A stretch of DNA of 44,918 nt, from sequence record OZ035798.1; one strand, 5' to 3'. Within the stretch, counting starts at the first letter, position 1, and each line of letters starts with the position of its first letter. The translations under genes and the position numbers were made by a program. The stretch comes from Vectrevirus LI10P3. Under the pieces are notes generated by a model, which was not told the origin of the DNA, ran no database searches, and was given only the letters and a program-made list of their open reading frames with translations. This document shows positions 8,285 to 15,058 of the stretch, in pieces.

Positions 8285-8659
8285 ATGGAAACGTGGGTAA
8301 CTGTCCCTGGCTACCCACGGTATCAAGTGTCTACTCATGGATGTGTCAAATCACTCATTGGTAATCACAAGATACTGAAGCCGGGCAAGTCAAAGAGTGG
8401 GTATTTGAACGTAGTTCTTAGTAATGAGGAAGGCAAGAAGACATTCCGTGTGCATCGCTTGGTTGCACTGTGTCATTTGCCTAATCCTCATAATCTTCCC
8501 TTAGTGAACCACAAGGATGAAGACAAGGCACATAATCATGTAGACAATTTAGAGTGGTGTACTGAAGAGTACAATCTCAAGTATTCACGTGACTACGATA
8601 GGTCTTCTCTTAGTGTAACCCAAGGACAGAAGAAGGTATGGCTTCCAGTAGACCTGTAA
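8285..8659 (+). CDS. HNH homing endonuclease (NUMOD4-like N-terminus)
   Basis: AAGGAG RBS; WVTVPGYPRYQVSTHGCV then VNHKDEDKAHNHVDNLEW; paralog of 331..774. Confidence 0.8.
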   Translation: METWVTVPGYPRYQVSTHGCVKSLIGNHKILKPGKSKSGYLNVVLSNEEGKKTFRVHRLVALCHLPNPHNLPLVNHKDEDKAHNHVDNLEWCTEEYNLKYSRDYDRSSLSVTQGQKKVWLPVDL

Positions 8660-8699: not shown

Positions 8700-8860
8700 T
8701 CAGCTCTCTCGCCCTCGCCCTCGCCGGATTTCCCCCATATAGGGCCGCGCTGCGGTTGGCTTGGGAATTGGGCTGGGCTGGTCCGTCTTCAACCTGCTGC
8801 CGCAGGAAGCTCGACGGGTGGCCTAGGGCTTGCCGAGGTCTGCTCTTAGTGGCTGCACAA
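8700..8860 (+). other. GC-rich non-coding block, probable genome-terminus / terminal-repeat region
   Basis: Composition differs sharply from the rest of the window; no ORF on either strand; lies between the last late gene and the first early gene. Confidence 0.35.
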
Positions 8861-9039
8861 GGAGAACTCCTAGGAAGCGCTAGGGTACGCCTTAGTATTG
8901 GACAAGGTGATTGCCTTAGTTCAACCGCTTAGGGCTTACACGGGCCGTTTTAGGGCCATTCCTGAGCGTTTGACAGGGTGTGAGGGCGTGGACTATCTGT
9001 TCGTTTCGTTCACTCCGCTTGCGCTACGTTCACTCGCTC

Positions 9040-9180
9040 ACGTGTACCTTAGGTTATTCCTTGATGGATAGCTTAGGTTAGCCTTAGTGGATTACCTTAG
9101 TTAAAGCCTTAGTGCTTCACTTAGTATCCGCTTAGTAGTGTACCTTAGTAAGTCTTAGTGTCTTCTCTTAGTGATTGCAC
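9040..9180 (+). repeat. Array of short direct repeats, CTTAGT(G/A), at least 10 copies
   Basis: Irregularly spaced CCTTAGT/CTTAGTG copies; extra copies at 8845-8925 and 9316-9500; analogous to the heptamer arrays next to T7 terminal repeats. Confidence 0.6.
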
Positions 9181-9369
9181 ATGCAAGCATGTAAGATGCC
9201 ATTAGGTCGCGGTCGGTAGACCGCTAAAGAAGAAGTATAGTAATAAGATGCAGTAGGAGGAACACCAGAAACCTAGCCAACCTAGCCTATCCTAGCTCTG
9301 CATCTATTGCTTTTCCTTAGTCTCACATGTTAGACAACCTATCTTATTCTTAGTGATGATAACTTAGTG

Positions 9370-9398
9370 TTGACAAGATAATCTTAGTGTAATACTAT
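9370..9398 (+). promoter_or_regulatory. Candidate host sigma70 early promoter
   Basis: TTGACA, 17 nt spacer, TACTAT. Confidence 0.4.
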
Positions 9399-9470
9399 GC
9401 ATCACGTAGGCGGTGCTGAGGCACCTAGTAGCCAGCTAGTAAGGCATACGAAGAGACTAGCGCTTACATT

Positions 9471-9953: not shown

Positions 9954-9982
9954 TTGACAGCCACGGCATACAAGGCTACATT
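9954..9982 (+). promoter_or_regulatory. Candidate host sigma70 early promoter
   Basis: TTGACA, 17 nt spacer, TACATT. Confidence 0.45.
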
Positions 9983-10240: not shown

Positions 10241-10336
10241 TTGGATGGTAGCTTCTTAGTCTGGATAGGTTAAACCTAGGGGACTCTCTTGAGTCTCCTA
10301 TAATGTAACCTAACTAACTAAATGAGGATTAATAAC

Positions 10337-10690
10337 ATGGCTATGTCTAATATGACTTACTCTCAGGTTTACAACACCGCTCATGCTGCATTAGTTGAAC
10401 GTATCTGGAATGATGATATTGATTGTATCGATAACGCACATGATGCAATCCATGAGGTAGCGGACAGTGCTGTACCAATCTATTATGCTGACATCTTCTC
10501 AGTAATGGCGAGTGAGGGTATTGATCACTTCTTCGAAGACTCCGGCCTGATGCCAGATACTAAGGATGTAACGGTCGTACTACAAGCCCGTATTTATGAA
10601 CAACTCACCATTGATTTATGGGAACGTGTTCAAGATATGATTGTTGCGTACACCACTTACGCTGAGTATTCAGAAGAAGAGGAGGAATAA
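10337..10690 (+). CDS. ocr: Ocr (gp0.3-like) DNA-mimic anti-restriction protein
   Basis: MAMSNMTY...[19 protein letters not shown]...[13 protein letters not shown]...[15 protein letters not shown]...EEEEE closely matches recalled T7 Ocr; 117 aa, highly acidic. Confidence 0.85.
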
Positions 10691-10795: not shown

Positions 10796-10818
10796 ATTTA
10801 GCTGACACTATAAGAGAA
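10796..10818 (+). promoter_or_regulatory. Phage RNAP promoter variant
   Basis: ATTTAGCTGACACTATAAGAGAAGG. Confidence 0.5.
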
Positions 10819-10880
10819 GGCTTAACAAGGCGTTACTAAGGTAGCGCCTGATTAAACTTTCACTTACTAGGAGTAAGACT

Positions 10881-11108
10881 ATGGATTTAGATAGCATCAT
10901 TATGGCATTTGCTCTTATTGGCTTAAGCTGGTGCTCCTATCACCTTTACCGTGAGTTCTTATTTGATAAAGCTAAACGCAAACTAAGAAAGGAAGGCGGT
11001 AATTACCTTTGTGTAAGAGATGGGCTTGTAGAATACATTGCACCTAACGGCACGGAATGCGCCATTAGCAAAGATGCATTTATAGAAACGTGGCATTACA
11101 TCAAGTAA
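10881..11108 (+). CDS. Early small membrane protein (75 aa)
   Basis: AGGAG RBS; N-terminal hydrophobic segment IIMAFALIGLSWCSY. Confidence 0.55.
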   Translation: MDLDSIIMAFALIGLSWCSYHLYREFLFDKAKRKLRKEGGNYLCVRDGLVEYIAPNGTECAISKDAFIETWHYIK

Positions 11109-11171
11109 CTAGCCTATAGCCTACCTGAGTGGGCTATGTGATATTTACTTACACTATATAAGGTGACTATT

Positions 11172-12095
11172 ATGACTACTGAAAACACCCTCCTGTCTGT
11201 TCGTGAAGCTGCAACCGCTGAGATCAAGCAACACTTAGACAATATCGGCACTTCTTACATCAAAGTTGGCGCTTGTCTTAATGAGTTACGCGGTGACTTT
11301 GAAGGTCAAAAAGACTTTTTGGCTTATGTAGAATCAGAATTTGGAATCAAGAAAGCACAATGCTACAAGCTGATGAGTGTAGCCCGTGTCTTTGAAGGAG
11401 ACGAACGCTTTAAAGGTGTGGCTATGCGTGTAATGCTGGCGCTTGTTCCTTTCGCTGATGAAAATATAATCATGGAGAAGGCCGCAGAACTCGCCGCAGA
11501 GGGCAAGCTGGACACTAACGCCGTAAACGCCCTGATTGATCCTAAGAAAGAGACAAAGGCCGAGACGGTACAATCTAAGGTTGAGTCGGTAAAACCGCAG
11601 GAGAACGCGACTGAGGCCGCAGAAACTATGCAAGGACATGCAACCTTTGAGGATTTCATCTTAGAGAAGGCGAAAGAGGATTTACAAAGTGTGCCGCCAG
11701 TAAGTGAGTCGGGTAACGACGAATCCGCACCGTGGGAAGATGAAAGCAAGCCGGAAGACACAAAGGCAGCGCCACGGGATAACACGGCTAATACTGAGAA
11801 TGCCGCTATTGCTGGTCTGCTGGCACAAATTAAAGCACTGACTGAGCAATTACAGGCAGCTAATGACCGCATTGCCTCCTTAAGCAGCGCACGCGAAAGC
11901 AAGAAAGCAGCCGCGCCTATGCTGCCGCAATTCAAATCTTCCTGCTTCTATGCTCGCTTAGGTTTAAGCGCTGAGGAGGCAACGAAGAAAACAGCAGTTA
12001 ACAAGGCACGCCGCGAACTGGTTAAGCTAGGCTACGGCGAAGGCCATGAAGCATGGCCCTTAATCTCTGAGGCAGTAGAAGAATTAACTAAGTAA
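11172..12095 (+). CDS. Early hypothetical protein with predicted N-terminal helical domain and Ala/Glu/Lys-rich C-terminal region
   Basis: 307 aa from ATG 11172; low-complexity charged middle and C-terminal heptad-like region; occupies the slot of T7 gene 0.7 but shows no kinase motifs. Confidence 0.6.
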   Translation: MTTENTLLSVREAATAEIKQHLDNIGTSYIKVGACLNELRGDFEGQKDFLAYVESEFGIKKAQCYKLMSVARVFEGDERFKGVAMRVMLALVPFADENIIMEKAAELAAEGKLDTNAVNALIDPKKETKAETVQSKVESVKPQENATEAAETMQGHATFEDFILEKAKEDLQSVPPVSESGNDESAPWEDESKPEDTKAAPRDNTANTENAAIAGLLAQIKALTEQLQAANDRIASLSSARESKKAAAPMLPQFKSSCFYARLGLSAEEATKKTAVNKARRELVKLGYGEGHEAWPLISEAVEELTK

Positions 12096-12158
12096 CCCTA
12101 TCGGTGGCATCTTATTAGGTGTCACCTATTAAGGTTTCTTTCACTAGGAGTAAACAAG

Positions 12159-14786
12159 ATGCAAGACCTACACGCTATTCAACTTCAACTTGAAGAAGAA
12201 ATGTTTAACGGCGGTATCCGTCGCTTTGAAGCGGACCAACAACGCCAGATTGCATCCGGTAATGAATCAGACACGGCATGGAATCGCCGCTTATTGTCCG
12301 AGTTAATCGCGCCAATGGCTGAAGGTATTCAGGCTTATAAGGAAGAGTACGAAGGCAAGCGCGGTCGTGCACCACGTGCATTGGCTTTCATTAACTGCGT
12401 AGAAAATGAAGTGGCAGCGTATATCACGATGAAGATCGTAATGGATATGCTTAACACTGATGTAACCTTGCAAGCTATCGCTATGAATGTAGCTGACCGC
12501 ATTGAGGACCAAGTGCGCTTCAGTAAACTAGAAGGCCATGCAGCTAAATATTTTGAGAAGGTCAAGAAGTCACTTAAGGCAAGTAAGACTAAATCATATC
12601 GCCATGCGCACAACGTAGCGGTCGTGGCTGAGAAGTCAGTAGCTGACCGTGACGCTGATTTCTCTCGCTGGGAAGCGTGGCCTAAAGATACCTTGCTACA
12701 AATTGGGATGACCTTGCTTGAAATCTTAGAGAATAGCGTATTCTTCAACGGGCAACCTGTCTTCCTCCGCACCTTGCGCACTAATGGCGGCAAACATGGT
12801 GTTTACTACCTACAGACTAGCGAACACGTGGGTGAATGGATAACTGCATTTAAAGAGCACGTAGCTCAGCTGAGTCCAGCCTATGCGCCTTGCGTGATTC
12901 CTCCTCGTCCGTGGGTGTCACCTTTTAATGGCGGTTTTCACACTGAGAAGGTGGCAAGCCGTATTCGTCTGGTTAAAGGTAACCGCGAGCACGTCCGCAA
13001 GCTGACCAAAAAGCAAATGCCAGCGGTTTACAAGGCTGTTAACGCCTTACAAGCTACTAAGTGGCAGGTTAACAAGGAAGTATTGCAGGTAGTAGAAGAT
13101 GTTATTCGTCTAGACCTCGGTTATGGTGTACCTTCCTTTAAGCCGCTCATTGACCGCGAGAACAAACCAGCTAACCCTGTTCCTCTTGAGTTCCAGCACC
13201 TGCGAGGCCGTGAATTGAAAGAGATGCTAACACCGGAGCAATGGCAGGCCTTCATCAACTGGAAGGGTGAATGTACTAAGCTGTATACCGCTGAGACTAA
13301 GCGCGGCAGCAAGTCGGCGGCGACCGTCCGCATGGTAGGACAGGCCCGTAAATACAGCCAGTTTGACGCTATTTATTTTGTATATGCACTGGACAGCCGT
13401 TCACGCGTTTATGCGCAATCTAGCACGCTCTCGCCGCAATCAAACGACTTAGGCAAGGCATTGCTCCGTTTTACCGAAGGGCAGCGTCTTGATAGCGCTG
13501 AGGCGCTTAAGTGGTTTTTGGTGAACGGGGCGAATAACTGGGGTTGGGATAAGAAAACTTTTGACGTGCGCACCTCTAACGTGCTGGATGGCGAATTTCA
13601 AGACATGTGCCGCGACATTGCAGCCGATCCGCTGACCTTCACTCAATGGGTAAATGCCGACTCCCCTTACGGCTTCCTTGCATGGTGCTTTGAATATGCG
13701 CGTTATCTGGATGCACTGGATGAAGGCACGCAAGACCAATTCATGACGCATCTACCCGTCCATCAAGACGGTAGTTGCTCTGGTATCCAGCACTATAGCG
13801 CGATGTTACGCGATGAAGTAGGTGCGAAAGCAGTAAACCTTAAGCCCTCTGACTCTCCTCAAGATATTTATGGTGCCGTTGCGCAGGTAGTAATTCAGAA
13901 GAACTATGCATACATGAATGCAGAGGATGCGGAAACCTTCACTTCTGGCAGCGTGACTTTAACAGGTGCGGAGCTGCGTAGTATGGCTAGTGCGTGGGAT
14001 ATGATAGGAATCACTCGCGGCCTGACCAAAAAGCCCGTAATGACACTACCTTATGGCAGCACACGTCTAACCTGCCGTGAGTCAGTGATTGATTATATCG
14101 TTGATTTAGAAGAAAAAGAGGCCCAACGGGCTATTGCGGAAGGGCGTACCGCCAATCCTGTACACCCTTTTGATAATGACCGTAAGGACAGCCTGACACC
14201 TAGCGCAGCTTATAACTATATGACAGCTTTAATCTGGCCTTCTATTTCGGAAGTGGTTAAAGCTCCTATAGTGGCAATGAAAATGATTCGTCAGCTTGCA
14301 CGTTTCGCAGCTAAAAGGAATGAAGGCTTAGAGTACACCTTGCCTACTGGCTTCATCTTGCAACAAAAGATAATGGCGACAGATATGCTCCGCGTATCTA
14401 CTTGCTTGATGGGAGAAATCAAGATGAGTCTACAGATTGAAACGGACGTAGTGGATGAAACGGCTATGATGGGCGCTGCTGCCCCTAACTTTGTGCACGG
14501 TCATGATGCCAGTCACCTTATCTTAACGGTCTGCGACCTTGTTGATAAAGGGATTACATCTATCGCAGTAATTCATGATTCTTTTGGCACTCATGCAGGT
14601 CGCACCGCAGACCTACGTGATAGTCTAAGGGCAGAAATGGTGAAGATGTATCAAGGCCGTAACGCTCTGCAAAGCCTGTTAGATGAGCATGAAGAACGCT
14701 GGTTAGTAGACACCGGAATCCAAGTGCCAGAGCAAGGAGAGTTTGACCTTAACGAAATCTTAGTATCTGACTATTGCTTCGCATAA
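12159..14786 (+). CDS. Single-subunit DNA-dependent RNA polymerase (T7/SP6 gene 1-like)
   Basis: 875 aa; [52 protein letters not shown] and HDSFGTHAG motifs; C-terminal ...CFA. Confidence 0.95.
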
Positions 14787-14794
14787 TATTAATA

Positions 14795-14824
14795 GGCCAT
14801 TCCTTCGGGAGTGGCCTTTCTTTT
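14795..14824 (+). terminator. Stem-loop with UUCG tetraloop and T-run after the RNAP gene
   Basis: GGCCATTCC-ttcg-GGAGTGGCC then TTTCTTTT; could alternatively be an RNase III-type site. Confidence 0.5.
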
Positions 14825-14858: not shown

Positions 14859-14874
14859 GTCTCACATGTGAGAC
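14859..14874 (+). repeat. Conserved palindrome GTCTCACATGTGAGAC, copy 1
   Basis: Perfect 16 bp palindrome abutting the promoter at 14877. Confidence 0.7.
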
Positions 14875-14876
14875 TT

Positions 14877-14899
14877 ATTTACCGGACACTATAGGATAG
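14877..14899 (+). promoter_or_regulatory. Phage RNAP promoter variant (ori-associated A)
   Basis: ATTTACCGGACACTATAGGATAG. Confidence 0.6.
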
Positions 14900-15042: not shown

Positions 15043-15058
15043 GTCTCACATGTGAGAC
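15043..15058 (+). repeat. Conserved palindrome GTCTCACATGTGAGAC, copy 2
   Basis: Perfect 16 bp palindrome a few nt upstream of the promoter at 15064. Confidence 0.7.

Follow-up and report, generated by a model that had tools for sequence, protein, structure and literature searches.

What does the protein do that Vectrevirus LI10P3 encodes immediately 5′ of its RNA polymerase (RNAP) gene, in the position held in T7 by gene 0.7? The sequence record of this phage (OZ035798.1; 44,918 nucleotides, analysed as a whole and here called the window) contains an open reading frame (ORF) at 11172–12095 (+ strand, stop codon included) for a 307-aa early protein, which is the orthologue of K1E gp6 and of the SP6 gene 6 product and which we refer to as gp6. 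An original prediction made from the letters of the window had described a non-kinase protein in the gp0.7 slot, consisting of a compact helical domain followed by a long Ala/Glu/Lys-rich region. Our analysis points with good confidence to a fixed build of four parts, namely a DUF3102-type head, an acidic tether, a zipper-like helix and a C-terminal J-like domain. The last of these, the most conserved module of gp6, had been overlooked. We found no description elsewhere of a protein in which a DUF3102 head is joined, by an acidic tether bearing a conserved peptide, to a zipper and a pseudo-J tail. As the best explanation of this build we tentatively propose a dimeric tethering adaptor, in which the head would bind nucleic acid or a partner and the tail would bind a conserved partner.

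The four parts of gp6

AlphaFold2, run on the 307-aa gp6 with a 54-sequence family alignment, gave a full-length model with a mean predicted local distance difference test (pLDDT) score of 80.9 and sharply separated parts. The C-terminal J-like (pseudo-J) domain comprises residues 248–307 (11913–12092, + strand) and, when modelled alone, is compact with a pLDDT of 95.6. It is assigned as a J domain because three independent lines of evidence agree. First, Pfam DnaJ (PF00226) was the only family to recur among 49 C-domains of the gp6 family, matching 16 of them (best E 5.6e-4). Second, a search of the PDB with a profile of the 49 C-domains was dominated by J domains, with 2ys8 (E 1.5e-4) as the best match and the bacterial DnaJ 6jzb at E 8e-4. 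Third, the top four Foldseek matches of the domain in the PDB were J domains, with template modelling (TM) scores of 0.65–0.66, root mean square deviations of 2.7–3.3 Å over 57–60 columns and probabilities of 0.66–0.89; the J domain of Escherichia coli DnaJ ranked seventh. The model contains the helix I, the antiparallel helix II/III hairpin and the core that define the J fold, with helix IV absent.

Residues of the J-domain core are kept in gp6, including L263-G264-L265, A279-x-R281 in helix II, and W295, A301 and L305 in helix III; the residue at R281 is R or K in 53 of 54 sequences. The His-Pro-Asp (HPD) motif is replaced, by GYGEGH (residues 287–292) in this gp6 and by IYTKA or LFKGN in other branches, in a loop that is about five residues shorter. 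HPD is missing from 131 of the 132 family representatives. The sole keeper is P0244 (276 aa, L010), a distant relative that has FHPDK precisely at the expected position, which fits descent of the gp6 tail from a true J domain. Proteins that have a recognisable J domain with HPD non-conservatively replaced are classed as type IV or HPD-less J-like proteins (PMC13254874). Judged by sequence and predicted fold, the gp6 tail belongs to that class and not among functional J domains, as it lacks both HPD and a Pfam score above threshold.

Among the phages compared, which infect Escherichia, Salmonella, Erwinia, Vibrio, Pseudomonas and Marinomonas, the J-like domain has been conserved more strongly than the rest of gp6. 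Its identity to K1E is 100% (97% for the head), to SP6 95% (76%) and to Era103 68% (54%), and even with the Vibrio, Pseudomonas and Marinomonas phages and ECBP5 it is 52–57% (30–49%). The PxLPQF motif at residues 249–254, which precedes the J-like fold, is nearly invariant. The C-domain is basic across the family, with a median isoelectric point (pI) of 8.7.

The N-terminal head is all-helical and covers residues 10–125 (11199–11546, + strand), with six helices predicted at pLDDT 88–97 over residues 11–120. A compact helical domain had thus been foreseen correctly, albeit at a size of about 90 aa that is too small. A relationship to DUF3102 (PF11300), also suggested in the original prediction, is supported through intermediates only. 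Neither the 307-aa gp6 nor its N-domain alone matched DUF3102 directly or reached its gathering score of 24.4 bits; 27 of 41 family N-domains did match it (best E 4.6e-7), and no other Pfam family recurred in more than 4 of the 41. Three relatives retrieved with gp6 exceed the gathering score, namely P0239 (E 1.5e-6 to gp6; 25.0 bits against DUF3102), P0241 (E 1.1e-5; 29.0 bits) and, with the highest bit score of the three, P0247 (E 2e-4; 41.4 bits). In a Foldseek search of BFVD with the gp6 model, the best matches after a direct homologue were viral DUF3102 proteins (probability 0.98–1.0). By transitive homology and predicted fold, and not by a direct Pfam match, the head is a distant relative of the DUF3102 proteins of phages, prophages and other mobile elements. 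The weakest-matching gp6 relatives that we inspected, including those above the DUF3102 threshold, have ends that differ from the J-like tail. The other family named in the original prediction, KfrA_N (PF11740), is missing from the list of 25 Pfam families hit by the 41 N-domains at E <= 1; no more than one of the N-domains could therefore match it.

Two helices of the head model, at residues 46–57 and 61–74, resemble a helix-turn-helix (HTH), and we infer from this pattern a putative HTH core at residues 57–74 (FGIKKAQCYKLMSVARVF; 11340–11393, + strand). Within the family alignment, K61 is conserved in 52 of 54 sequences, Y65 in 49, K/R66 in 43 and R86 in 41, making K61 and Y65 nearly invariant and placing conserved basic residues on what would be the recognition helix. 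No PDB structure matched the full-length model at E <= 0.001 in Foldseek. Ranks 1 and 2 among solved structures were 2ntz_B and 1r71_A, from the P1 ParB–DNA complex and the KorB DNA-binding domain, both non-significant (E 2.5–3.1), and rank 7 was 8qa9_B, from the KorB–KorA complex. These ParB/KorB matches span E 2.5–6.3 with probabilities of 0.2–0.3, and the TM score of 1r71 normalised by target is 0.50. The model thus makes DNA binding by the head plausible, with weak support. Short matches of N-domain profiles to ETV6 fusions and protein A in PDB sequences were set aside as spurious.

Between the head and the helical C-terminal half lies an acidic, proline-containing linker (residues 126–205; 11547–11786, + strand) that is predicted to be disordered (pLDDT 41–73) and carries a net charge of −11. 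Across the family it ranges from 49 to 93 aa with a median charge of −7, and its identity to homologues is only 19–61%, with insertions and deletions. One such insertion, of 13 aa within residues 157–173 (11640–11690, + strand), separates the 307-aa form, common to this phage and its closest relatives, from the 294-aa form of K1E; a short low-confidence helix is predicted in this region, at residues 159–167. Within the linker, a short linear motif, DESAPWEDES (residues 183–192; 11718–11747, + strand), stands out as an island of conservation with the family pattern [DE][DE]xxP[WF][DE]. This pattern occurs in 35 of 96 family representatives; shuffling of the linkers gives an expectation of 4.5, with no more than 14 in any of 200 shuffles, so that the enrichment is about eightfold. 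Nearly all close relatives (116 of 120) have the P[WF] motif, as do SP6, phi-A318 and Njord; it was not found in Era103 or ECBP5 and is absent from about 60% of representatives.

The linker leads into a long helix (residues 206–247; 11787–11912, + strand; pLDDT 86–95 over residues 211–240) with a leucine-zipper-like stretch at residues 213–237. In the best register of this stretch the a and d positions are occupied by I, L, I, L, L, A, I and L, giving four clean heptads, and the helix is probably a dimerisation element. The long, partly heptad-patterned Ala/Glu/Lys-rich region that had been described downstream of the head therefore resolves into a linker, a helix with four heptads and a folded 60-aa domain. 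Its composition was described accurately, Ala, Glu and Lys being the leading residues at positions 100–135 and 245–307.

The gp6 family

Gene 6 is a real and widely conserved early gene of SP6/K1E-like phages. The 307-aa protein matches PHROG 4571, a family of unknown function, at E 2.8e-130; tblastn found homologues in 213 phage records, 210 of them covered over at least 80% of the length and with identity falling to about 29%; and HMMER, run exhaustively against 1.84 billion representatives, yielded 132 representative clusters at 50% identity. These results show that the ORF is far more than a chance reading frame. The phages concerned infect Klebsiella, Salmonella, Proteus, Erwinia, Pectobacterium, Vibrio, Pseudomonas syringae and Marinomonas, and gene 6 was present in every phage of the SP6/K1E/K1-5 type that we examined. 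Vectrevirus and K1E belong to the subfamily Molineuxvirinae of SP6-like Autographiviridae.

In SP6 and Era103 the homologue lies immediately 5′ of the RNAP gene, whereas the two are separated by one small ORF in Njord, CPP1m and ECBP5; in metagenomic relatives the homologue is found downstream of S-adenosylmethionine (SAM) lyase genes, likewise markers of the early region. Many relatives (for example, ECBP5 at L006:695-1729, P0172 and P0205) carry an extra N-terminal extension of 60–200 aa with a loosely conserved TLKDAK...TK motif and no consistent Pfam match. A tblastn search of 72,556 plasmids returned no homologue, so gp6 is not a plasmid gene of the KfrA/KorB type.

Direct searches with the 307-aa sequence returned weak coiled-coil noise in Pfam and nothing in NCBIfam or among PDB sequences, and the family is catalogued in databases as 'hypothetical' or is misnamed. 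The names endolysin ('andolysin'), 'late transcription factor VLTF-4' and 'periplasmatic protein', which some records carry, are annotation artefacts.

Possible functions of gp6

In the adaptor that we tentatively favour, the zipper would pair two gp6 chains, and the two heads would bind nucleic acid, likeliest DNA via the HTH-like helices (K61, K/R66 and R86), or alternatively another protein. Carried on the flexible acidic arms, the pseudo-J domains and the P[WF] peptide would be offered to a partner that is strongly conserved. Such conservation is to be expected of the tail partner, as the tail is the best conserved part of gp6 across phages of distant hosts. We regard the Hsp70 system of the host as the first candidate, with DnaK as the partner or, in the manner of Pam16 and Pam18, a J-protein of the host; RNAP or the replisome of the phage would be an alternative. 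In this view gp6 might recruit or sequester its Hsp70-system partner instead of stimulating it as a classical co-chaperone does, although we consider this Hsp70-directed version doubtful, and less secure than the adaptor in its general form.

This idea has precedents. Mitochondrial Pam16, which lacks HPD, binds the J domain of Pam18 instead of stimulating Hsp70 (PMC13254874). Like gp6, pseudo-J proteins of the Pam16/Tim16 type have a J core with HPD non-conservatively replaced; unlike them, gp6 is phage-encoded, has its J-like part at the C terminus, with a loop about five residues shorter and without helix IV, and carries PxLPQF and a DUF3102 head. The first J-domain protein known to be encoded by a phage, Rki (ORF057w) of the T4-like RB43, is described as functional, interacting with DnaK and stabilising sigma32 (PMC3486835). 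It is a precedent for phages targeting DnaK, but it differs from gp6 in having HPD, in its architecture and in coming from an unrelated phage group. Among eukaryotic viruses, the immediate-early protein ICP22 of herpes simplex virus 1 (HSV-1) lacks HPD and is nevertheless reported to bring Hsc70 into nuclear foci (PMC13254874). The likeness of ICP22 and of large T antigen to gp6 is that of early viral proteins with a J or J-like module; it implies no homology, and for gp6 the link to DnaK is hypothetical. The large T antigen of polyomaviruses, also an early protein, combines a J module that recruits Hsc70 with DNA binding.

Several observations weigh against the adaptor. HPD is regarded as essential for productive contact with Hsp70, and in known J-proteins even conservative changes to it abolish ATPase stimulation (PMC13254874); classical stimulation by gp6 is therefore unlikely, and a link to DnaK is not implied by the fold alone. 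All Pfam DnaJ matches fall below the gathering threshold of 27.8 bits and the 307-aa gp6 itself has none, the Foldseek matches of the C-domain have E of about 1–3 with a short query of 62 aa, and P0244 stands alone, on a metagenomic contig of 1.5 kb, without relatives or a clade. The dimer is read from the heptads only. As for DNA binding, the structural similarity of the head to ParB and KorB is non-significant, two N-domain profiles retrieved no solved relative and no ParB/KorB chain from PDB sequences, and the head is acidic (median pI 5.3 across the family). A link to ParB at the level of sequence was rejected, as hhalign gave a probability of 0.13 for the N-domain alignment against an HTH segment of Spo0J. 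Our literature search, which covered SP6 gp6 and K1E gp6, DUF3102, early proteins of SP6-like phages and transcriptomes of Vectrevirus, turned up no functional study.

A more specific form of the adaptor, which we consider improbable, would make gp6 an early, dimeric, DNA-anchored decoy, with the pseudo-J domain holding DnaK or a host J-protein at or off the phage genome while the P[WF] peptide engages replisome proteins or clients of single-stranded-DNA-binding protein (SSB). If true, this would be a new host-takeover device of phages built from a disabled chaperone module.

Of the other explanations, the one that survives best, though still unlikely, is that gp6 is a DNA-binding regulator or genome organiser in the style of KorB, ParB or KfrA, dimerised by the zipper and having a J-like tail with no link to Hsp70. 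Its head would bind sites on phage or host DNA, for instance to silence transcription of early or host genes or to label an origin, and the tail would be an interaction or oligomerisation module. ParB and KfrA families have a head, a flexible linker and a C-terminal dimerising part, and gp6 shares this plan of a helical HTH-type head, a flexible linker and a C-terminal helical pairing element. The HTH-like helix pair with its conserved K61, K/R66 and R86 agrees with such a role, as do the ParB–DNA and KorB structures at the top of the solved-structure matches, with KorB–KorA in seventh place, and the loss of HPD speaks against chaperone stimulation (PMC13254874). Those matches are the non-significant ones noted above, however, and gp6 is set apart from KorB, ParB and KfrA by the lack of any sequence signal (KfrA_N included), of a CTPase/ParB N-domain and of a plasmid homologue, as well as by its acidic head. 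A genome organiser would also leave unexplained why the J-like domain is the best conserved module and why its J-core residues have been kept.

It is also improbable, in our estimate, that gp6 is a working if non-canonical J-protein that engages DnaK and either stimulates it or recruits it productively to the site where its head is bound, in parallel with large T antigen or ICP22. Homology to J domains and the predicted fold favour this, and the C-domain is basic. The equivalents of DnaJ Y25/K26 (A-[YF]-R; R281) and F47 (an aromatic residue; W295) are retained; the roles of these residues in DnaJ come from mutational work. One relative, P0244, keeps HPD, and function with Hsc70 has been reported for ICP22 as well as for a J analogue designed without HPD (PMC13254874). 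Against this, HPD is replaced in gp6 non-conservatively and differently by sub-branch (GYGxGH, IYTKA or LFKGN) in a shortened loop, when conservative changes already abolish ATPase stimulation (PMC13254874).

The motif in the linker raises the prospect, which we regard as slight, that gp6 is a hub centred on an acidic P[WF] peptide that mimics SSB tails and binds SSB-client enzymes of the host or the phage DNA polymerase, making it a replication or anti-recombination factor. Acidic tails ending in Phe are found in E. coli SSB (...DDDIPF) and in T7 gp2.5 and gp4, and some gp6 relatives read DDIPFD at the motif, which may resemble the C-terminal tail of SSB. The motif forms a conserved island in a fast-evolving linker, and a close relative has no gene annotated as SSB-like, nor did nine of its hypothetical proteins match such a PHROG. 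The resemblance is only a lead, however, and an SSB tail is an acidic run that ends in Pro-Phe at the extreme C terminus and uses its free carboxylate, whereas the gp6 motif is internal and has Pro-Trp followed by acidic residues. Because the motif is absent from about 60% of representatives, and from Era103 and ECBP5, the peptide cannot be the core function of the family.

There is similarly little reason to think that gp6 takes the place of T7 gp0.7 in shutting off host transcription without being a kinase, the role that its position had suggested. That gp6 is not a kinase was borne out, with no kinase family found in Pfam, PHROGs or NCBIfam. The idea of a substitute draws on the location of gene 6 in the early unit just 5′ of the RNAP gene; in addition, neither a kinase of the gp0.7 type nor a gp2-like RNAP inhibitor is annotated in the close relative vB_Eco_Sem2, and no Vectrevirus appeared among the ten most frequent organism names listed in a search for gp0.7 kinases. 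Vibrio phage phi-A318 argues otherwise, as it encodes consecutively a gp6 homologue, a 298-aa kinase (L002:1988-2884) and RNAP. Its kinase matches the gp0.7 PHROG (phrog_15752) at E 3.2e-47 and is 39.5% identical to T7 0.7, and 12 Vibrio phage records contain such a kinase. In BLASTP, gp6 showed no similarity to the phi-A318 kinase, the best alignment having E 0.24 over 12 residues. As phi-A318 carries both genes, gp6 and gp0.7 are independent and not alternatives, with position (early, 5′ of the RNAP gene) the only thing in common; gp6 has no homology to gp0.7, and none of its domains points to RNA polymerase. In phi-A318, moreover, the 3′ end of the homologue contains an annotated phage promoter.

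That gp6 is an endolysin, VLTF-4 or a periplasmatic protein, product names that occur in a few GenBank records, can be practically dismissed, as no lysozyme, peptidase or transcription-factor family matches it, the gene lies in the early region, a close relative has its actual endolysin-type gene elsewhere, and the names probably arose from low-complexity matches.

The architecture turns an anonymous ORF into a testable one, with respect to DnaK/DnaJ interaction, DNA binding and the clients of the peptide motif. It corrects the tempting notion that gene 6 stands in for the T7 gp0.7 kinase, offers a functional entry point to DUF3102, for which no role is known, and would supply a bacteriophage example for the question of what HPD-less J domains do. 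Some carriers of gene 6 are already in therapeutic use, or have been suggested for it, against E. coli K1, Klebsiella, Salmonella and Erwinia.

Genomic setting of gene 6

The ORF begins, as originally given, with the ATG at 11172, preceded at a distance of 6 nt by the Shine-Dalgarno-like AAGGTG (11160–11165, + strand); a GTG at 11163 is merely the mechanical first start of the ORF. K1E gp6 is annotated at the corresponding place of K1E, and about 1.4 kb around the gene is 99.9% identical in DNA sequence to a Vectrevirus genome and about 95% identical to K1E genes 4–7. Two minus-strand ORFs (11363–11935 and 11334–11639) lie inside gene 6; all the protein-level conservation that we found is in the + frame.

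Directly downstream follows the gene for an SP6-type RNAP (12159–14786), so that the claimed adjacency of the two genes holds. Along the window the order is tailspike and HNH genes, an ORF-poor stretch, promoters, small early genes, gene 6, the RNAP gene and a hairpin. Gene 6 can be assigned to the early region, again as proposed, because it lies between sigma70-like promoters (9331–9398 and 9954–9982) and the terminator-like hairpin that follows the RNAP gene (14794–14817).

A phage-type (SP6/K1E-like) promoter-like sequence, ATTTAGCTGACACTATAAGAG, was found by consensus scan at 10796–10816 (+ strand), 5′ of gene 5, gene 6 and the RNAP gene, with an identical copy at the equivalent place in K1E (L011:2779-2799). 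The corresponding stretch of SP6 contains no match to the SP6 promoter consensus at <=3 mismatches. Downstream of the site is a strongly structured leader (10800–10885; −28.2 kcal/mol, z −5.1). Given this upstream sequence, gene 6 may be read by both polymerases, and gene 6 and the RNAP gene may also be transcribed by the phage enzyme from this putative promoter.

Hairpins with 10-bp stems bracket gene 6. One, placed by a terminator scan, is in the spacer between genes 5 and 6 (11115–11138, + strand; surrounding 76 nt, −20.2 kcal/mol, z −2.3) and the other is in the spacer between gene 6 and the RNAP gene (12103–12127, + strand; surrounding 73 nt, −18.9 kcal/mol, z −2.2). The early mRNA of T7 contains RNase III-type processing sites, and the two hairpins could be sites of this type or weak terminators.

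Two genes 5′ of gene 6 lies a homologue of Ocr, the anti-restriction protein of the T7 gp0.3 type (10322–10690, + strand; phrog_2568, E 9.3e-48); its K1E equivalent, gp3, is annotated as putative ocr. Further upstream, an HNH endonuclease gene (8285–8659, + strand; phrog_59, E 1.5e-39) is found just 5′ of an ORF-poor, GC-richer stretch at about 8700–9400, where the genome ends or a terminal repeat are probably located. Because these probable ends lie inside the window, at about 8.7–9.4 kb, the window is a circularly permuted whole genome. On the other side of gene 6, 3′ of the RNAP terminator, two copies of a perfect palindrome, GTCTCACATGTGAGAC, lie within 200 bp (14859–14874 and 15043–15058, + strand), the first of them adjoining a phage promoter-like site at 14877.

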